32,000 bases of DNA, from positions 120,001 to 152,000 of the forward strand of contig NZ_AP018159.1 in assembly GCF_004296535.1 (NCBI RefSeq). Direction: 5' to 3'. Below the pieces are notes generated by a model. The model saw only the letters and a program-made list of their open reading frames with translations, was not told where the DNA came from and did not search any database. A program made the translations under genes and the position numbers. This document shows, one piece after another, positions 2-32,000 of the stretch (position 1 is the first letter of the stretch; each line of letters starts with the position of its first letter). The stretch comes from Candidatus Saccharimonadota bacterium (GTDB taxonomy: Bacteria; Pseudomonadota; Gammaproteobacteria; Enterobacterales; Enterobacteriaceae).

Positions 2-1669
2 ATGGCTATAGACAGATCTGGTATACAATTTAGAAAATTGAATACTAGTAAAGGATTAGCTGTTCAATCTACTAGAGCTCAAGCTGATAGATATATATAT
101 AGTAGAGAAGTAAAAAAAATATTATTTAGTAACAAAAATTTATATGTATTTCAAGATAAAGTTATAAAGTTATTAATAAATAATAATAAAATAAATGGTA
201 TATCTACTGTATTAGGGTTTAATTTTTTTTCTAAATCTGTTATTTTATGTTTAGGAACTTTTTTAAATGGATTTATATATATAGGAACAAAATTTAAATA
301 TAAAGGTGGAAGATCTAATGATATATCATCTACATATTTATCTAATCAATTAAAAGAAATATTTCCATTTTCTATAAATAAGTTAAAAACAGGAACTCCA
401 CCTAGATTAGATTTAAAAACTATAAATTTTAATAAGTTAAATTTTCAAAAAAGCGATTATCCTATACCAATGTTTTCTTTTATTAAACAAAATAATAATT
501 TAAAAAAAATATATTGTTATATAACATATACAAATGAAAATACACATAATATAATATATAAAAATCTACATTATAGTCCAATGTATACAAATAAAATATG
601 TAGTATAGGACCAAGATATTGCCCATCTATAGAAGATAAAATAATAAAATTTAAAGATAAAAAAAGTCATCATATATTTTTAGAACCTGAAAGCTTATTT
701 AGTAATGAAATATATCCAAATGGAATATCTACTAGTTTACCTATAAATATTCAATTTAAAATAATAAAATCTATAAAGGGATTAGAAAAATGTAGAATAA
801 CAAGACCAGGATATGCTGTAGAATATAATTTTTTAGACCCTAAAAATCTTTATTATACATTAGAAAGCAAAATTATATCTGGATTATTTATATCTGGGCA
901 ATTAAACGGTACAACAGGATATGAAGAAGCTGCTTCTCAAGGAATTATATCTGGCATAAATGCTGCATTATTTTCTAAAAATATGGAATCTTGGTATCCA
1001 AAAAAAGAATATTCTTATATAGGATTAATGATAAAAGATTTATGTGATAATGGAGTTATTGAACCATATAGAATGTTTACATCTAGGTCTGAAAATAGAT
1101 TTTTTTTAAGAGAAGATAATGCTGATATGAGATTAACAAAATATGGGTATAATTTAGGTTTAATTAATGAGTTTAGATGGAAAATTTTTGTTAATAAAAA
1201 AAATAATATATTAAATGAAAAAAACAGACTAAAAAATTTAAATATAGATATAAAAAAAATTAATAATAAAATTAATAAAAAAATAAATATAGAAAAAAAA
1301 GAAATAAATGCATTTGAATTATTAAAATTAAATGAAATATCTTATAAAGATATATTAAATATAATAGATTACACTTATAATAAGAATAAAAATTATATTG
1401 AAGAAATTTATAAATTAATAGAAATAGATATAAAATATGAATATTTTATATTAAAACAAAAAAAAGAAGTTGATATAAAAAATAAATTTTTAAAAATGTT
1501 AATACCTAAAGATATAAATTATAACAATATATCTGGATTATCTAATGAATCAAAATATTTATTATATAAATACAGACCAAATAATATAGAAGATATATTA
1601 AAAATACCAAATATAACATCATCATCTATTTTTATATTAATTATTTGGATTAAAAATAATAGAAAATGA
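2..1669 (+). CDS. mnmG: tRNA uridine-5-carboxymethylaminomethyl modification enzyme MnmG (GidA), 5' end truncated by window edge
   Basis: The ORF runs from the window edge. Long collinear matches to E. coli MnmG (GIQFRxLNxSKGxAVxxTRAQADR, GPRYCPSIEDK, FLEPE, IYPNGISTSLP, RPGYAxEY, GQxNGTTGYEEAAxQG, EPYRMFTSR). TGA stop at 1667-1669 overlaps the murB ATG (ATGA). Confidence 0.95.
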   Translation: MAIDRSGIQFRKLNTSKGLAVQSTRAQADRYIYSREVKKILFSNKNLYVFQDKVIKLLINNNKINGISTVLGFNFFSKSVILCLGTFLNGFIYIGTKFKYKGGRSNDISSTYLSNQLKEIFPFSINKLKTGTPPRLDLKTINFNKLNFQKSDYPIPMFSFIKQNNNLKKIYCYITYTNENTHNIIYKNLHYSPMYTNKICSIGPRYCPSIEDKIIKFKDKKSHHIFLEPESLFSNEIYPNGISTSLPINIQFKIIKSIKGLEKCRITRPGYAVEYNFLDPKNLYYTLESKIISGLFISGQLNGTTGYEEAASQGIISGINAALFSKNMESWYPKKEYSYIGLMIKDLCDNGVIEPYRMFTSRSENRFFLREDNADMRLTKYGYNLGLINEFRWKIFVNKKNNILNEKNRLKNLNIDIKKINNKINKKINIEKKEINAFELLKLNEISYKDILNIIDYTYNKNKNYIEEIYKLIEIDIKYEYFILKQKKEVDIKNKFLKMLIPKDINYNNISGLSNESKYLLYKYRPNNIEDILKIPNITSSSIFILIIWIKNNRK

Positions 1670-2742
1670 AATTTATTTCTATAAAAAAAATTCATAGTTT
1701 TAGATTAAATTCTAAAGCTAAAAAAATAATAAAAATACATTCTGTTATAGATTTAATTAATATATATAATATGTTAATTATTAAAAAAATAAATTTTATA
1801 ATTATAGGGAATGGAACTAATACTATTTTTTTAAACAATTTTAATGGAATTATTATAATAAATAAAATATTAGGAATAAAAAATAAAAGTGATAAAATAA
1901 ATTGGAAATTACATATAAACTCTGGAGAAAATTGGAATAAAATAATTAAATATACTTTAAAAAATAAAATATTTGGATTAGAAAATCTTGCTATGATACC
2001 TGGGAAAATTGGTTCTGCATCAATATATAATATAGGAGCTTATGGTTCTGAATTTAAAAATTTTTGTGAATATGTTGACATATTAAATTTAAAAAATAAT
2101 AAAATAATAAGATTTAGTAATAAAGATTGTAAATTTTCATATAGAAATAGCATATTTAAAAATAAAAATAATAAAAAAAATATATTTATTTTATCTATAG
2201 GATTAATAATTCCTAAAAAATGGAAACCAAATATATCTCATAGTATATTTAATAATAAATATTTTTTTATTAAAAAAAATATAACAGCTAATAAAATATA
2301 TAATTTTATATGTAAAATAAGAAAAAAAAATATACCTAATTATAATATTTATGGAAATTCAGGAAGTTTTTTTATTAATCCAATAATAAATAAAAAAAAA
2401 ATTAAATATTTAAAAAAGAAATATAATAATATTCCTTATAGTTTGGAAAAAAAATATAAATACAAAATATATGGTGGATGGCTAATAGAACAATGTGGAA
2501 TAAAAGGATTAATTATTGAAAATTTTTTTATAAATGATAAAAATTCATTAATAATTATTAATAAAGGAAATTATAATGGATATAATTTAATTTCAATAAT
2601 AAAAATAATTTATTATATTGTATTAATAAAATTTAATGTAAAATTAGAATTAGAAGTTTTTTTAATACTTAATAATAAATGTATAAATAGTAAAAAAATT
2701 TTTACTAATTTTTTAAAATATAATTTAAATTTATTATGTTAA
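1666..2742 (+). CDS. murB: UDP-N-acetylenolpyruvoylglucosamine reductase MurB
   Basis: 358 aa, collinear with E. coli MurB (GxGSN/TN..F, GENW, GLENLAxIPG, IQNIGAYG, CxFxYRxSIFK, GNxGSFFxNP, GWLIxQC). Confidence 0.9.
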   Translation: MKFISIKKIHSFRLNSKAKKIIKIHSVIDLINIYNMLIIKKINFIIIGNGTNTIFLNNFNGIIIINKILGIKNKSDKINWKLHINSGENWNKIIKYTLKNKIFGLENLAMIPGKIGSASIYNIGAYGSEFKNFCEYVDILNLKNNKIIRFSNKDCKFSYRNSIFKNKNNKKNIFILSIGLIIPKKWKPNISHSIFNNKYFFIKKNITANKIYNFICKIRKKNIPNYNIYGNSGSFFINPIINKKKIKYLKKKYNNIPYSLEKKYKYKIYGGWLIEQCGIKGLIIENFFINDKNSLIIINKGNYNGYNLISIIKIIYYIVLIKFNVKLELEVFLILNNKCINSKKIFTNFLKYNLNLLC

Positions 2743-2978
2743 ATATAAAATTATCTAAAATAGGTAGAAAAAATAAAATATCTTATAGAATAGTAGTAGC
2801 TTCATCTAAATCATCTAAAAATAGTAAATTTATAGAAAAAATAGGTTTTTTTAATCCATTTGATAAAAAAAATCAATTTAATATAAATATTAATAGATTT
2901 ATATACTGGAAAAAATGTGGATCAAAAATTTCAAATAGAGTTAAATTTATAATAAATAAATTTCATTATTTAAAATAA
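2736..2978 (+). CDS. rpsP: 30S ribosomal protein S16
   Basis: 80 aa; the N-terminus matches the S16 pattern (xxIxLxxxGxKxxxxYxxVVAxSxxxxNxxFIExxGFFNP). Overlaps the murB 3' end by 7 nt. Confidence 0.93.
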   Translation: MLNIKLSKIGRKNKISYRIVVASSKSSKNSKFIEKIGFFNPFDKKNQFNININRFIYWKKCGSKISNRVKFIINKFHYLK

Positions 2979-2993
2979 AAAAATTTTTTAAAT

Positions 2994-3723
2994 ATGAAAA
3001 TTATAATAATAACTATGTTTCCTAAAATTTTTAAAAATATATTTAATTATGGATTAATAAAAAAAGCTATTGTAAACAATATAATAAAATTAATTATTTT
3101 AGATTTAAAAAAATTTGTAAGTTTAGGAGAAAAAATAGATAATTATTCATATGGTGGCGGAGGTATGGTTATATCTTGTAATCCATTATACAAATCAATA
3201 TTAAAAGCTAAAGAAAATAATAAAAAATCAAAAATCATATACCTATCTCCACAAGGAAAAAAATTAAATCAAAATTATATTAATAATTTATCAAAATTTA
3301 AATCTATTATAATAATATGTGGTAGATACGAAGGAATAGATGAAAGAATAAAATCTAAAATAGATTATGAAATATCAATAGGAGATTATATATTAAGTGG
3401 AGGAGAAATACCTGCAATTGTATTAATAGATTCTATTTCTAGATTAATTCCCAGGAGTAATTAAAAATAAAATATCTATTAATAATGAATCATTTTATAA
3501 TAATTTATTAGATTTTCCTCATTATACAAGACCATATATTTTTTTAAATATGAAAGTTCCATCTATATTATTATCTGGAAATCATTTTGAAATTTATAAA
3601 TGGAGATTAAAACAATCATTAATTAATACATGGATAAATAGACCCGATTTAATAAATAAAATAAATTTAAAAAAATTAAAAAAAATATTCTTAAATAATT
3701 TTAAGAATTTTATAAATAAATAA
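2994..3723 (+). CDS. trmD: tRNA (guanine37-N1)-methyltransferase TrmD, interrupted by a +1 frameshift (segments 2994..3452 and 3454..3720, stop 3721-3723)
   Basis: Frame-0 ORF 2994..3464 matches TrmD residues 1-153 (YGGGxGM, IYLSPQG, CGRYEGIDER, IGDYxLSGGExPA, LIDSxSRxIP). Homology continues without a gap in the +1 frame from 3454 (GVIKN..ESF..LLDFPHYTRP..VPSILLSGNHFEIYKWRLKQSL..RPDL). The joined product is 242 aa, against 255 aa in E. coli. Confidence 0.9.
3447..3456 (+). other. frameshift junction ATT-CCC-A-GGA (0-frame reading ATT CCC AGG AGT AAT TAA); candidate +1 recoding site, 1-nt insertion or sequencing error
   Basis: Reading ATT CCC, skipping A3453 and continuing GGA GTA ATT AAA restores the conserved I-P-G-V motif exactly. 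The 0-frame terminates 3 codons later. Confidence 0.4.
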
Positions 3724-3738
3724 AACAACATAATAAAT

Positions 3739-4056
3739 ATGAAAAATATCATAAAAAATTTAAATTTGAGTCAATTAAAAAATAATAATTTAAAATTAAA
3801 ATCTGGATATTTTGTGGATGTTAATTTTTATATAGATTCAAATAAAAAAAAAAATCAAATATTTTCTGGATTAATTATATCTATAAAAAATAAATCTTTT
3901 TTAACATCAATAATAGTTAGAAAAATATCCTATAATGTAGGAGTAGAAAAAACATTTTATATTCATGCTCCTAACATAAAAAAAATTGTAATAAATAAAA
4001 TCAAAAAATATAGAAAATCTAAATTATATTTTTTAAGAAAAATTTCAAGATTATAA
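3739..4056 (+). CDS. rplS: 50S ribosomal protein L19
   Basis: 105 aa; matches L19 (MxNIIKxL, F.G..I.I.N.....S..VRKIS.GVE..F..H.P, KLY.LR). Lies in the syntenic position after trmD. Confidence 0.93.
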   Translation: MKNIIKNLNLSQLKNNNLKLKSGYFVDVNFYIDSNKKKNQIFSGLIISIKNKSFLTSIIVRKISYNVGVEKTFYIHAPNIKKIVINKIKKYRKSKLYFLRKISRL

Positions 4057-6319: not shown

Positions 6320-7048
6320 ATGAATAATACAAATTCAAATATTATAAATAATATAAACATTATTTATGAAGATGAATATTTGTTTATAATTAATAAACCT
6401 TGTAATTTAATAGTTAATTTAAATAATAAATATATAAATTTAATAAATATTATAAACAATAATATAAAAGATCTTAGTAATATAGAAAACAATGGATTAG
6501 TACATAGATTAGATAAAAATACAACTGGATTAATAATTATAGCTAAAAATAATTTATGTTATTTTAAACTTAAAAAACTTTTTTATAAAAAAAAAATATA
6601 CAAAGAGTATATAGGAGTTGTTACAGGAGAAATGTTATCTGGAGGATCTATATATAAAAGTATTTCTAGAGATAAAAAAAGAAATAAAATGTGTATAAAT
6701 GAAGAATATGGAAAAAAATCAATAACTTATTATAAAGTAATTAAAAAATTATATCTTCATACTTTAATAAAAATAAATATAATTACAGGAAGAACACATC
6801 AAATAAGAGTTCATATGTCTAATATTGGTTATACTCTTGTTGGAGATAAAAAATACATAAATAACAATTCTAATTACAAAAAATCTTTTGATTTTTTAAA
6901 GAAAAAAAAATTTTTATTTGAAAGACAAGCGTTACATTCATATAAAATAAAATTTATACATCCAATAACTAAAAAAAATATAAAATGCATTTCTAAATGT
7001 CCTGATGATATAAATAAATTAATTAAATTTATAGAAATTTATAGTTGA
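6320..7048 (+). CDS. rluD: 23S rRNA pseudouridine synthase, RluA/RluD family (rluD by synteny), lacking the N-terminal S4 domain
   Basis: 242 aa; matches IxYEDExxxxINKP, HRLDKxTTGLxxxAK, EYxxV, TGRTHQIRVHM, LVGDxxY, RQALH. Syntenic with E. coli rluD downstream of tyrA. An in-frame stop at 6302-6304 rules out a longer N-terminus. Confidence 0.8.
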   Translation: MNNTNSNIINNINIIYEDEYLFIINKPCNLIVNLNNKYINLINIINNNIKDLSNIENNGLVHRLDKNTTGLIIIAKNNLCYFKLKKLFYKKKIYKEYIGVVTGEMLSGGSIYKSISRDKKRNKMCINEEYGKKSITYYKVIKKLYLHTLIKINIITGRTHQIRVHMSNIGYTLVGDKKYINNNSNYKKSFDFLKKKKFLFERQALHSYKIKFIHPITKKNIKCISKCPDDINKLIKFIEIYS

Positions 7049-9314: not shown

Positions 9315-9986
9315 TTAATTAATATTCCATTTTTTAATTGTTATATCTAACATAATATCATTTTGTATAATTTTTATTTTTTTAGGCAATACTGGATTAA
9401 AATTATCATTATATTCATAAAAAATTTTATAATTTTTTTTGTTACAATCGTCAATATAATTCATTTCTCTTATATATCCATTTTTATTTAAAAAAAATAA
9501 AGTATATTTTCCAGGAAGCCCTATTATCCAATTTTTTATATTACTTATTGGTATATTAGTTTTAGACATTTGCTCAAATAAACTTTGAGGATTACTATTT
9601 TTTACAGGATCAGAACCTATATTTTTATAATATGAATCACTTGAATTATTTACAAATTCCATTAATTTTAATCCAAAAAATGTAGATAATTCAAATTTGA
9701 AATAATCTTTATCAAAATTATCTAAATAAAAATTTAATAACATTCTTTTTATTCCATTTTTATAAACTAAAGCACCACTAATTTGGAATGTTTTTATATT
9801 TGATATATTTTTTTTATGATTATTCCACTTAATTTTGTTTTTATTTAAATTTAAATTTTCATTATTTATATAACTTATATTTTCTACATAATTTTTATTT
9901 AAAAAATAATTATTTTTAAATGATAATTTATTATGAAAAATATAAATTAATTTTATAAATATTTTTAAAAAAAAATTATTATACAT
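9315..9986 (-). CDS. lolB: outer-membrane lipoprotein receptor LolB homolog (no lipobox Cys)
   Basis: 223 aa; divergent from prfA, as in E. coli. Matches: IPISNIKNWIIGLPGKYT vs E. coli IPLNSLRQWILGLPGDAT; FQISGALVY vs YQTRGAFAY; C-terminal IxLxIxxWNI vs IKLKMDNWIV. Confidence 0.75.
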   Translation of the reverse strand: MYNNFFLKIFIKLIYIFHNKLSFKNNYFLNKNYVENISYINNENLNLNKNKIKWNNHKKNISNIKTFQISGALVYKNGIKRMLLNFYLDNFDKDYFKFELSTFFGLKLMEFVNNSSDSYYKNIGSDPVKNSNPQSLFEQMSKTNIPISNIKNWIIGLPGKYTLFFLNKNGYIREMNYIDDCNKKNYKIFYEYNDNFNPVLPKKIKIIQNDIMLDITIKKWNIN

Positions 9987-10143: not shown

Positions 10144-11199
10144 ATGAATAATGATATTATAGAATCAATAAAAAAAATTAATATATTAAAATTAGAAATT
10201 GAAGAAAATATATATATTTTAAAAAAAAACAAAAATAATAAAAATAGATTAGAAATTTTAAAAAATAAATTAAATTGTTATAACAATTTAATAGAAAATA
10301 ATTTAAAATTAATTAAAATTAATAATGAAATATATAAAGTAAGTAATATAAATGACAAAGAAATAGAAATACTTATAAAAGAAGAAATAAATTTATTAAA
10401 TAGTGAAAAAAATAATATATTATTTAATATTGAATCTATAAAAAAAAGTTTAAAAAAAATAAATTATAATAATAAAGGTTGTTTAATAGAAATAAAATTA
10501 GGAACTGGAGGAAATGAATCTTCATTATTTATAGAAAATTTATATAAAATGTATATTAAATATTTTTATAAAAAAAATTGGAATTTTTTTTTAATAAATA
10601 AAATTTTAAATAACAAAGGAGGATATAAAGAAATAGTAATTAAAGTATTAAATGAAATATCTTATGAAAAATTAAAATTTGAATCTGGAGGACACAGAGT
10701 TCAAAGAATTCCTGAAACAGAATCTAAAAATAGAATACATACATCAACATGTATAGTTGCTGTTACACCTATAATAGAAGAAAATTATCTTAAAAAAGAT
10801 ATTAATTTATCAGATTTAAAAATAGATACATTTAAATCTTCAGGTTCTGGTGGTCAACATGTGAATACTACTGATTCTGCAATAAGAGTTACTCATATTC
10901 CAACAGGAATAGTTGTAGAATGTCAAGATGAAAGATCACAACATAGAAATAAATCAAAAGCTATATCAATTTTAAAATCTAAAATAAATTTTATAGAAGA
11001 AAAAAAAATAAAGGAAAAAAATAATATAATAAAAAAAAAATTATTAGGAACAGGGCATAGAATAGATAGAATAAGAACTTATAATTTTGTAAAAAATAGA
11101 ATTACAGATCATAGATTTAATATAACTATATATAATAAATTATTTTATATTTTAAATGGAGAATTAGATATATTATTAAATATATTAGAAAAAAAATAA
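10144..11199 (+). CDS. prfA: peptide chain release factor 1
   Basis: 351 aa; [13 protein letters not shown] (PxT tripeptide typical of RF1), [39 protein letters not shown] (GGQ motif), RIRTYNFxxxRxTDHR. Confidence 0.95.
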
Positions 11200-11274: not shown

Positions 11275-11751
11275 TTATTGATGTAAATTATAAGTATATA
11301 ATAAGAATATTAATATTATAATTATAAATAAAAAAAATTTATTAAATTTAAATTTAAATTTTATTGGCCATAATAAACATATTCCATGTTTAGTTAACAT
11401 ATCTGCTAACATATGATTTATACAGCCTAAAATTATTCCATAATGTATTGATTTATTTAAATAAAAATTATTTTTATATAAAATATATTTAGATAAAAAA
11501 TATATTATAATTAAAAATAATATACTATGAGTAATTTTTCTATGTCCAAAAAATTTATTTATAAATGTTGAAATAAATTTTAATTTGTTTCCTATTGAAG
11601 AAATTGGATGATCTATATCTGGAAAAAAAGAAAATATTATCGAAGTTATTAATAATATATTCCATTCTATTATAGAAAATTTTAATATTTTAAAATTTTT
11701 TAATACAAAAATAGAAATTGTATTAAATATTATATGATCTTTGATATTCAT
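11275..11751 (-). CDS. ydjM: YdjM-family (DUF457) membrane-bound metal-dependent hydrolase homolog
   Basis: 158 aa, hydrophobic. Matches E. coli YdjM: PDIDHPxSxxGxxLKxIS, FGHRxxTHS, GxxxHxLADMLTxxGxxLLWP. E. coli ydjM lies near thrS, so it is syntenic here. Confidence 0.8.
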   Translation of the reverse strand: MNIKDHIIFNTISIFVLKNFKILKFSIIEWNILLITSIIFSFFPDIDHPISSIGNKLKFISTFINKFFGHRKITHSILFLIIIYFLSKYILYKNNFYLNKSIHYGIILGCINHMLADMLTKHGICLLWPIKFKFKFNKFFLFIIIILIFLLYTYNLHQ

Positions 11752-20240: not shown

Positions 20241-21167
20241 ATGTTTTTAAAAAAAAATAATTTAAAAATAATTTTTATGGGTTCTTGTTATTTTTCTTTG
20301 AATCAATTATTTATTTTAAATAAAAAATATATTATATCTTTAATTATTTTTAAAGAAAAAATTAATTTTTATAAAATAAAAGAATTTGCTATAAAAAATA
20401 AAATATTTTTTTTAAAAATAAAAAATTTTTCCAATGAAATTATTAATATAATAAAAAACATTAATCCAGATATAATTATAGTTTCATCTTTTGGTTTATT
20501 ATTAAATAATACTATATTAAATATTCCAAAGTACGGATGTATAAATATTCATCCATCATTATTACCAAGTTTAAAAGGACCTGCTCCAATATATTGGGCT
20601 ATAATTAAAAATTATAAATACACAGGAATATCTATTATAAAAATGAATGATATATTTGATAATGGAAATATAATATTTCAAATTAAATATAAAATAAAAA
20701 AACATTTTGATTATAAATATCTATCAAATAAATTATCTAATATGTCTGGTATTGTATTAAATAATATATTAGAAAAAATAGAATATTATATTAATTTAAA
20801 AGTAAAAAATAATTATATAGAAAGTTATGCTAGAAAAATTACAAAAAGTGATGCATTATTAAATTTTAATAATAATTCATTTTTAGAATATAAAAAAATA
20901 AAATCTTTTAATATATGGCCAATATGTTATTTTATTTTTAATGATAAAAAAATTAAAATAATAGATTCAAAATATAGATTTAGTAAAATTAAATTTAATA
21001 AAAAAATAGGAAATATATTTTTTTTTAAAAAAAAAGTATTTATAATATTAAAATATGGGTTATTAGAAATAATTAAAATAAAAATACAAAATAAAAAAAA
21101 TATATTATATATGAGAAACGATATATTTACTTTTTTTAATAATTTAAAAAAGAAAACTATTTTTTAA
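20241..21167 (+). CDS. fmt: methionyl-tRNA formyltransferase
   Basis: 308 aa, after def; matches IIFMG, CINIHPSLLPxxxGxAPI, TGxSIxxMxxxxDxGxI. The C-terminal domain is diverged. Confidence 0.85.
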   Translation: MFLKKNNLKIIFMGSCYFSLNQLFILNKKYIISLIIFKEKINFYKIKEFAIKNKIFFLKIKNFSNEIINIIKNINPDIIIVSSFGLLLNNTILNIPKYGCINIHPSLLPSLKGPAPIYWAIIKNYKYTGISIIKMNDIFDNGNIIFQIKYKIKKHFDYKYLSNKLSNMSGIVLNNILEKIEYYINLKVKNNYIESYARKITKSDALLNFNNNSFLEYKKIKSFNIWPICYFIFNDKKIKIIDSKYRFSKIKFNKKIGNIFFFKKKVFIILKYGLLEIIKIKIQNKKNILYMRNDIFTFFNNLKKKTIF

Positions 21168-28729: not shown

Positions 28730-28951
28730 CTACTTTATTAAAGTAACATTAGATATATGAATTTTAGATTCAATATAAATAATTCCACCAACTCTATTTA
28801 AATTAGGTGAAGGTTTAACATGTTTTTTTACTAATTTTACATTTTCTACAAATACAAAATTATTTTTTATTTTTATTATTTTACCAATTTTTCCTTTATC
28901 TTTTCCATATATAATTTTTACTACATCATTTAATTTTATTTTATATTTCAT
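28730..28951 (-). CDS. rplX: 50S ribosomal protein L24 (C-terminally short, 73 aa vs 104 in E. coli)
   Basis: IKxxDxVxxIxGKDKGKxGKI, VENVxLVKKHxKP, GGIxxxExxIxxSNV. Confidence 0.9.
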   Translation of the reverse strand: MKYKIKLNDVVKIIYGKDKGKIGKIIKIKNNFVFVENVKLVKKHVKPSPNLNRVGGIIYIESKIHISNVTLIK

Positions 28952-30218: not shown

Positions 30219-30845
30219 TTAAAAAATCATTCCTTTAAATACCCAAACTTTTATTCCAATTATACCATATGTAGTTTTACATATTGAACAATTATAATCT
30301 ATATTAGATCTTATTGTGTGTAATGGAATTCTTCCTTCTTTGTACCATTCTGATCTTGCTATATCCGAACCTCCTAACCTTCCACTTATTTTAATTTTTA
30401 TACCTAAAGCTCCATATTTCATAGATTGTTGTATATATCTTTTAATAACTTTTCTAAATGATTTTTTTTTTTTTATTTGAAAAGATATATTTTCAGAAAT
30501 TAATTTTGCATCTAATTCGGGATTTTTAACTTCAAAAACTTTAATTAAAGTTTCTATTTTTGATATACCACTAATTTTATTTTTTAACTTTATTAAATCT
30601 TCTCCTTTTTTACCTATTATAATTCCTGGTTTAGAAGTATATATATTAATAATAATATTACTAGATAATCTTTCTATTATTATATTTGATATTGGAACTT
30701 TATGTAAATAAATATTAATAAAATTTCTTATTAAATAATCATTTCTTAAATTATCTAAAAATTTTTTTTTATCTGAATACCATATAGAATTCCAAAATTT
30801 ATTTATTCCTAATCTAAATATTATAGGATTAACTTTTTGTCCCAT
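30219..30845 (-). CDS. rpsC: 30S ribosomal protein S3 (C-terminal tail shortened)
   Basis: 208 aa; MGQKVNPxxxRLGIxKxWxSxWY, KPGIIIGKKGEDIxxLK-like, RLGGxxIARxEWYxEGRxPLHTxRxxIDY. Confidence 0.96.
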   Translation of the reverse strand: MGQKVNPIIFRLGINKFWNSIWYSDKKKFLDNLRNDYLIRNFINIYLHKVPISNIIIERLSSNIIINIYTSKPGIIIGKKGEDLIKLKNKISGISKIETLIKVFEVKNPELDAKLISENISFQIKKKKSFRKVIKRYIQQSMKYGALGIKIKISGRLGGSDIARSEWYKEGRIPLHTIRSNIDYNCSICKTTYGIIGIKVWVFKGMIF

Positions 30846-31479: not shown

Positions 31480-32000
31480 TTATTTTTTTCTTTTTTTAAT
31501 GATGAATTTATTTGTTCTTTTATTTTTTCTAGTTTTTTTACCTTTAGTTTTAATACCTAAAGGTGTAACAGGATGTTTACCAAAATTTTTTCCTTCACCA
31601 CCTCCATGAGGATGATCAACAGGATTCATAGCTGTTCCTCTAACTGTTGGTCTTGTTCCTCTCCATCTATTAGCTCCCGCTTTTCCTAAAGATTGTAAAA
31701 ACATTTTTTCATTTCCTACTTCTCCTATAGTAGCTCTACAAGAAGAAAGAATTTTTCTTATTTCACCAGATTTTAATTTTATTATAGAATATTTTTTATC
31801 TTTAGATAATAATTGAGAATAAGATCCTGCGGATCTAGATATTTTACCTCCTTTCTTTGGTAACATTTCTATATTATGTATATTAGTTCCTATAGGAATA
31901 TTTTTTATCTCCATACAATTTCCTATTTTTATATCAACTTTACTTCCAGATATAATTTTATCTCCTATATTTAAATTTTTTGGTAATAAAATATATTTTT
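31480..32000 (-). CDS. rplB: 50S ribosomal protein L2, 5' part beyond the window edge
   Basis: C-terminal [37 protein letters not shown]. L2 homology continues upstream of the track's ATG at 31914 (..[33 protein letters not shown] vs E. coli ..[31 protein letters not shown]), so the gene runs off the window. Confidence 0.95.

Follow-up and report, generated by a model that had tools for sequence, protein, structure and literature searches.

The weevil Euscepes postfasciatus (West Indian sweet potato weevil) harbours a Nardonella endosymbiont with a genome of 219,841 bp, whose trmD gene carries one base too many in its deposited sequence, within the conserved IPGV motif of the encoded tRNA methyltransferase. 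The gene was analysed in a window of 32,000 nucleotides (nt), which is the whole stretch of DNA considered here and to which the coordinates refer. Eight window proteins are exact matches to GenBank BBA84645-BBA84666, "endosymbiont of Euscepes postfasciatus". The explanation we favour, tentatively and as the best of several, is a real, lineage-specific insertion of a C that is tolerated through corrective +1 slippage of ribosomes at the heptamer CCC AGG A, with negative feedback built in.

The open reading frame (ORF) 2994..3464 ends in frame 0 with TCT AGA TTA ATT CCC AGG AGT AAT TAA, translated as ...SRLIPRSN and a stop. The uninterrupted frame expected of a TrmD is thus broken, with one extra base within 3450-3453 and a 0-frame stop at 3462-3464. 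From 3454 the +1 frame encodes GVIKNKISINNESF...HYTRP...LLSGNH...RPDL in 89 codons before its own stop at 3721-3723, and skipping one base at 3450-3453 gives a TrmD of 242 amino acids (aa). On the upstream side TAA 3445-3447 closes the +1 frame, whose first ATG, GTG or TTG is the ATG at 3550; full-length TrmD therefore needs a change of frame within 3448-3461. Within this stretch CCC-A (3450-3453) alone gives both good tRNA re-pairing and the conserved PGV motif. A shift at AAT-TAA (3459-3464) was also considered and was rejected in favour of CCC-A, as it would turn the conserved G-V-I into R-S-N and re-pairing would be poor. In E. coli numbering the two segments meet after P157 and before G158, and the catalytic-base position, D169, comes downstream of this point.

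The restored 242-aa protein matches the PF01746 profile with E=1.9e-47. The first piece takes up profile positions 32-132 and the second piece 133-195, and as these positions are contiguous at 132/133, nothing is missing at the break. The joined protein also aligns with E. coli TrmD 1P9P (E=3.6e-65, residues 3-237) and is gapless at the junction. The original prediction, made from the sequence, was that trmD is split by a +1 frameshift at CCC-AGG-A, that the skip restores the IPGV motif and 89 conserved TrmD codons, and that the shifted product is required because the first downstream ATG lies past key motifs; these statements are borne out by the profile and the 1P9P alignment and by the additional absence of GTG and TTG before 3550.

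Family conservation was assessed at the columns conserved to at least 90% in 190 TrmD homologs, 55 of 56 of which are kept in the restored protein (33/34 in the N-terminal part and 22/22 in the C-terminal part). The sole departure is a Lys at TrmD residue 39 (3108-3110), where Arg is 98% conserved, and it is situated in the unshifted N-terminal part. The equivalent of D169 is Glu here, as it is in 88 of the 190 homologs. Comparison was further made with the TrmD proteins of two other Nardonella, the symbiont of Sipalinus gigas (AP018162, locus L002) and "Ca. Nardonella dryophthoridicola" NardRF from Rhynchophorus ferrugineus (CP069383, locus L004). The window protein is 58.6% identical to the Sipalinus symbiont protein in the N-terminal part and 55.1% in the C-terminal part, and 56.0% and 57.8% identical, respectively, to that of NardRF, while the two intact proteins share 58.4% and 54.7% with one another. 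The C-terminal identity of the window TrmD to other Nardonella thus equals that between two intact orthologs, and its 89 downstream codons remain open in DNA of 14% GC. Neither a second lesion nor relaxed constraint was found in trmD by conserved columns and by identity to the two Nardonella. Decay of the downstream segment, which the original prediction had named as a sign against recoding, is therefore not apparent, and this state would fit selection on the shifted product.

The candidate shift site and its decoding

Codon use was counted over the 10,151 codons of the window. CCC occurs five times, against 101 for CCA (the commonest Pro codon) and 88 for CCT, and AGG accounts for 8 of 272 Arg codons against 262 for AGA, so AGG is uncommon relative to AGA, as originally predicted. 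GGA is the commonest Gly codon with 270 uses. The heptamer hence places the rare AGG in the 0-frame A site and the common GGA in the +1 A site, and its P-site codon CCC is followed by an A, giving CCA, which is cognate for a UGG anticodon. Four other in-frame CCC codons are present in the window, in trmD itself (3643-3645) and at codon 332 of pheT, codon 10 of def and codon 109 of rpsC; they are followed by G, T, G and G, and 0/4 by A, a sample too small for a claim of avoidance.

The behaviour of this motif has been determined in E. coli, where a CCC-A lacZ reporter shifted +1 at 1.5% with both tRNA-Pro isoacceptors, at 4.2% with tRNA-Pro(UGG) only, and at 11.6% when, in addition, 1-methylguanosine at position 37 (m1G37) was lost; the shift was explained by the exchange of a weak U34-C wobble pair for a stable U34-A pair in the +1 frame (PMC8324841). 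In vitro, CCC-A is the fastest-shifting CCC-N context for tRNA-Pro(UGG) (PMC4519876). Buchnera, also a gammaproteobacterial symbiont and reduced to a comparable degree, has a UGG Pro tRNA whose m1G37 is made by TrmD, and its tRNA-Arg(UCU), which carries 5-methylaminomethyluridine (mnm5U) via MnmE/MnmG, reads AGG poorly (PMC3439896). The slip from CCC to CCA by tRNA-Pro(UGG), raised without m1G37, that the original prediction proposed is in keeping with the reporter data (PMC8324841).

A mechanism may be put forward on this basis. The insertion would have hit the Pro-Gly of the IPGV motif, where the N-terminal domain ends, in a trmD that is still used. A fraction of the ribosomes with peptidyl-tRNA-Pro (probably of a single UGG isoacceptor) on CCC would move to CCA in the +1 frame as long as the rare AGG stands undecoded in the A site, and would then read GGA GTA and complete full-length TrmD. 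The m1G37 of tRNA-Pro, which is the product of TrmD, would suppress exactly that slip, and negative feedback would therefore arise, with less methylation leading to more slippage and more TrmD. The indel could have been fixed because it landed by chance in a leaky context, which is the sense in which the frameshifting would be corrective. The E. coli trmD mRNA is translated inefficiently; little TrmD is probably needed, so a shift of a few percent could suffice.

Two other ways of obtaining an active enzyme from this sequence were considered. The first is a split enzyme, in which the 156-aa N-terminal chain and a C-terminal chain re-initiated near TAA 3462 assemble into active TrmD. The break does lie at a domain boundary (P157/G158), AGGAG is found at 3453-3457 and an ATT at 3460 overlaps the stop. 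However, the lack of an ATG, GTG or TTG before 3550 places any conventional start past the catalytic-base and HYTRP motifs, the ATT is only 2 nt after AGGAG, and AGGAG is merely the codons GGA G(TA). Re-initiation driven by a Shine-Dalgarno (SD) sequence was rejected, as the genes here do not use one, and the split enzyme is very improbable. In the 25 nt upstream of starts, 41 of 42 genes are without an SD-like sequence and leaders are pure A/T; the exception is secY (TTG start, 25540) with AGGAG. Initiation in the Nardonella genes of the window appears to be SD-independent.

The second is transcriptional slippage, whereby RNA polymerase would drop one C and leave some mRNAs in frame. Such slippage is documented in insect endosymbionts (PMC5009743), but the known cases need homopolymers of about 9 or more, whereas the run here is C3 and no longer run exists in 3448-3461. 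This route is scarcely credible for trmD.

Origin of the extra base

The corresponding codons are AGA TTA ATA CCT GGA GTT in the Sipalinus gigas symbiont and AGA CTA TTA CCT GGA GTA in NardRF, both in frame, while the window reads AGA TTA ATT CCC A GGA GTA, one base more than either relative. In both of these genomes trmD is intact and is found in the same operon context. Pairwise identity among the three TrmD proteins is no more than 55-59%, and a TrmD closer than ~57% to the window protein was not found in a collection of 5.8 billion proteins. No closer relative was found, and over the distance spanned by these two Nardonella the shift site shows no conservation. A TyrA search for further Nardonella loci returned only the query itself. 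The Logan loci L005-L008, with TrmD 53-56% identical to the Sipalinus protein, and locus L003 belong to other symbionts with a different gene context and were not used as relatives. From these alignments, the most economical history would be the gain of one C by CCA GGA to give CCC AGG A.

The case resembles corrective frameshifting in three respects: the indel is lineage-specific in an otherwise conserved and retained gene, it lies in the shift-prone context CCC AGG A, and the downstream frame is open and conserved, although this last observation has low power if the indel is recent. Indels that are retained in vertically inherited small genomes and partly compensated by frameshifting are a recognised class in mitochondria and endosymbionts (PMC5009743).

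The position of the insertion is also unusual. A total of 2170 distinct single-base insertions are possible in trmD, of which 12 (0.55%) give an in-frame CCC-N with the exact protein restored by a +1 shift, six (0.28%) give CCC-A and only one (0.05%) gives CCC-AGG. Were the position random, be it through an error or through neutral pseudogenisation, such an outcome would have a small probability. A filter which lets only leaky frameshifts be fixed in an important gene would explain the location, and the idea of such a filter has already been put forward for mitochondria and endosymbionts (PMC5009743).

Whether the base is real was examined from the deposit and from the surrounding sequence. 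The restored protein is the depositors' BBA84647.1 (100% identity over 100% of its length), with an accession between those of rpsP and rplS. RefSeq WP_ accessions are present for both of these neighbours and there is none for TrmD, and because RefSeq holds no protein for trmD the extra base is almost certainly present in the deposited DNA. The simplest reading is that the frameshift was bridged by the depositors' translation and that the NCBI pipeline gave no protein. Neither the 156-aa truncated product nor the 57-aa product from ATG 3550 was in the protein collection.

A full-length translation across a break is the usual choice for a suspect or heterogeneous position, and this favours an artefact of assembly or sequencing, or a consensus of a mixed (polyploid, heteroplasmic) population that also holds an intact trmD. 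We regard this as a serious rival, if on balance a rather unlikely one. The perfectly intact downstream part is compatible with it, and sister genomes of the same 2017 study show indels against re-sequencing: AP018160 differs from Pin-AIST by five indels, and in AP018161 the essential ileS carries a 1-nt frameshift relative to NardRF (NardRF announcement). The ileS frameshift of AP018161 (R. ferrugineus Nardonella) is at position 820 and is absent from NardRF; next to trmD, it is another case in which an essential gene of a 2017 Nardonella genome is shifted by one base. Against an artefact, the rest of the window is clean. Only trmD is broken among ~45 genes in 32 kb, the ~44 others being intact and contiguous, and none of the A/T runs inside ORFs (110 of at least 8 nt, 213 of at least 7 nt) breaks a frame. 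Given this clean surrounding sequence, an indel error at a C3 run, which is not a typical error hotspot, is not the expected type of error. The base was moreover left uncorrected in the sequence by the depositors, and an error would have to fall by chance on a class of sites making up 0.05-0.55% of those available. Of the assembly indel that the original prediction listed as an alternative, the homopolymer-type error thus seems unlikely, while artefact or mixture in the wider sense keeps its weight. A second split gene was briefly suspected in rplB (31480-31914) and was rejected, as its frame merely runs off the window end. An independent assembly of the Euscepes symbiont was not found by exact look-up of BBA84647.1, RpsP and RplS in the searched collections, and a metagenome scan for the site with CC or CCN gave 0 hits. 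Among the genome contigs scanned with low-complexity peptide patterns of the restored protein, the one match was to an unrelated Oscillospiraceae contig.

The base may also be real and trmD a young pseudogene, in which the insertion inactivates the gene and the symbiont either does without m1G37 or has traces of unselected read-through, with decay still to come. The original prediction had listed a recent inactivating insertion too, and it deserves to be taken seriously, although we think it unlikely. The ORF is broken, the shift is lineage-specific and RefSeq gives a protein for each of the two neighbours and none for trmD; the genome is under extreme reduction, with rimM already gone from the same operon. 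E. coli trmD null mutants are viable and recover through proS changes, and trmD therefore need not be functional. On the other hand, further lesions, relaxed constraint and loss in relatives, which would mark a decaying pseudogene, are not seen, trmD being intact in both other Nardonella genomes, and a random inactivating insertion would hit a CCC-N restoring site in only ~0.5% of cases. The power of these tests is small should the lesion be of very recent date.

Several points weigh against corrective slippage itself. The shift site is not conserved, with CCT GGA in frame in both other Nardonella genomes, and a lesion of very recent date, or an error, would leave the downstream part just as intact. 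The site was flagged because of its coincidence of features, which weakens the statistical argument from position. The rare codons CCC and AGG would arise of themselves from a C inserted into CCA GGA, the commonest Pro and Gly codons, and do not point to design. The window contains no tRNA genes and the tRNA-Pro and tRNA-Arg repertoire is an assumption. No SD-like stimulator was found upstream of CCC, and a downstream RNA structure was not detected, the fold being no better than shuffled (z=0.66). The extra base is known from one genome, with no second assembly in the searched collections; the indels in the sister genomes and the viability of E. coli trmD nulls count on the same side.

Much the same observations bear on a stronger claim, that the frameshift is kept by selection as a self-sensing recoding switch, in which m1G37 status sets TrmD output via the tRNA-Pro slip. 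A programmed site is expected to have a stimulatory element and to be conserved in relatives, and both are lacking. The alignment of trmD with relatives that had been proposed as a check gave no second CCC-AGG-A, and the original suggestion of an evolved self-sensing site analogous to prfB, which codes for release factor 2 (RF2), is left unsupported, there being no conservation, SD-like stimulator or RNA structure. The site is not demonstrably an evolved regulatory device, and we consider a selected switch improbable. Such a switch might also replace the mRNA-structure control which keeps TrmD low in the E. coli ribosomal-protein operon.

If the base is real and decoded, it would be a natural counterpart, inside trmD, of the laboratory CCC-A reporter. 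Corrective slippage would then couple TrmD synthesis to the translational error that TrmD suppresses, and would offer a testable example of how, in an endosymbiont that passes through bottlenecks and does not recombine, a leaky site allows an indel to be fixed even in a near-essential gene. It would show how recoding circuits with a regulatory role, such as that of prfB, might have an accidental start, and would provide a read-out of m1G37 status in an unculturable symbiont. Were a selected switch true, it would be without natural precedent, in that a tRNA-modification enzyme would regulate its own synthesis by way of the very decoding error against which its modification guards. An error or a young pseudogene would be ordinary, with a lesson on annotation, as depositors translate across a break for which RefSeq gives no protein.

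The operon and its surroundings

The window has ~14% GC and is ~95% coding. The gene order at the locus is mnmG-murB-rpsP-trmD-rplS-aroG-tyrA, and the same order is present in the Sipalinus gigas Nardonella and in NardRF. The context rpsP-(rimM)-trmD-rplS (2736-4056) is that expected of trmD. Coordinates of the features are collected in the table.

Features of the trmD locus and its neighbours, in window coordinates
Feature	Coordinates	Strand	Remarks
trmD 0-frame segment	2994..3452	+	Codons 1-153, SPOUT N-terminal domain to ...SRLIP; PF01746 32-132, E=1.5e-25
TAA, +1-frame stop	3445..3447	+	Bounds on its upstream side the 14 nt (3448-3461) open to rescue by a change of frame
Candidate +1 shift heptamer CCC AGG A	3450..3456	+	Sequence, codon counts, published CCC-A motif
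TAA, 0-frame stop	3462..3464	+	Ends the unshifted 156-aa product
trmD +1-frame segment	3454..3723	+	89 codons and stop; linker with catalytic-base position, C-terminal tRNA-binding domain; PF01746 133-195, E=9.2e-15
rpsP	2736..2978	+	Upstream trmD-operon neighbour; BBA84646.1 / WP_130624085.1; synteny with L002, L004
rplS	3739..4056	+	Downstream trmD-operon neighbour; BBA84648.1 / WP_232616959.1; synteny with L002, L004
mnmG	2..1669		In the window

Between rpsP and trmD rimM is absent, with a gap of 15 nt (window 2978-2994), and it is likewise absent in NardRF (L004 2259-2501), while a rimM of 163 aa is present in the Sipalinus gigas Nardonella (L002 2008-2499). As rimM is kept or lost by lineage, the trmD operon erodes differently among Nardonella lineages.

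Some further observations were made in the window. TGA is the stop codon of mnmG (1667-1669) and of a pseudouridine-synthase-like gene (7046-7048), TAG is used in three genes and the others end in TAA; the only release factor seen is RF1 (prfA, 10144-11199). GC and AT skew are positive to ~20 kb and negative after ~21 kb, with a dip at ~8-10 kb at two minus-strand genes. The sign of the skew tracks the coding strand (fmt on the plus strand, rplQ on the minus strand at 21157), and its change looks tied to transcription strand and not to a replication landmark. ORFs on the minus strand include 9315-9986 (223 aa) and 11275-11751 (158 aa, membrane-protein-like). The rplX (28730-28951) and rpsC (30219-30845) products, at 73 and 208 aa, are below the typical lengths of bacterial L24 and S3, and may represent terminal truncation, which is common in highly reduced genomes.

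Comparison with known systems

Mitochondrial corrective +1 frameshifting is exemplified by the nad3 genes of birds and turtles. As a class, the corrective frameshifting of mitochondrial indels is described in PMC5009743. The trmD case has in common with these genes a single extra base in a conserved essential gene of a small, vertically inherited genome, an intact downstream frame, and a shift, putative in trmD, at the codon preceding an AGN codon of rare use. In mitochondria the frameshift is found conserved in many species, and its decoding is thereby proven, whereas the trmD case is from one genome. Poly(A) transcriptional slippage in Buchnera and Blochmannia (PMC5009743) is likewise a situation in which a 1-nt indel in an insect endosymbiont gene is kept functional by infidelity of decoding. 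It acts, however, at RNA polymerase on long A runs and is not applicable to the C3 found here.

The yeast Ty1 +1 site, CUU AGG C, has a weak-wobble P-site tRNA that re-pairs better in the +1 frame and a rare AGG next to it, with no RNA structure, and its heptamer logic is nearly identical to that of the trmD site. Ty1 is a eukaryotic retrotransposon that makes a fusion protein at a set ratio, and its shift is conserved and experimentally proven, unlike that at the trmD site. At the prfB site, CUU UGA C, a P-site tRNA slips +1 beside a slowly decoded A-site codon and the gene's own product lowers the shift in negative feedback, and both features are proposed for trmD. The prfB site differs in having a stop as the A-site codon where trmD has a rare sense codon, and in feedback that acts through A-site occupancy, against the modification state of the P-site tRNA in trmD. 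The prfB site is also reported to have an SD-like stimulator and to be conserved across many bacteria (PMC12421855), and the trmD site has neither feature.

A further relation is to laboratory CCC-N systems. In Salmonella trmD mutants, +1 frameshift mutations at CCC-N are reported to be suppressed when m1G37 is deficient (Bjork 1989, Hagervall 1993), and these mutants, like the E. coli CCC-A reporter (PMC8324841), involve the same motif, tRNA and modification as here. In the searchable literature no paper was found that deals with the trmD of Nardonella or that connects trmD with a frameshift inside the gene itself, and closure of the loop inside trmD is not reported in the searched literature. 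In the laboratory systems the frameshift is placed in his or lacZ genes; here it lies inside trmD itself, where slippage would close the loop between the enzyme and the error it suppresses.

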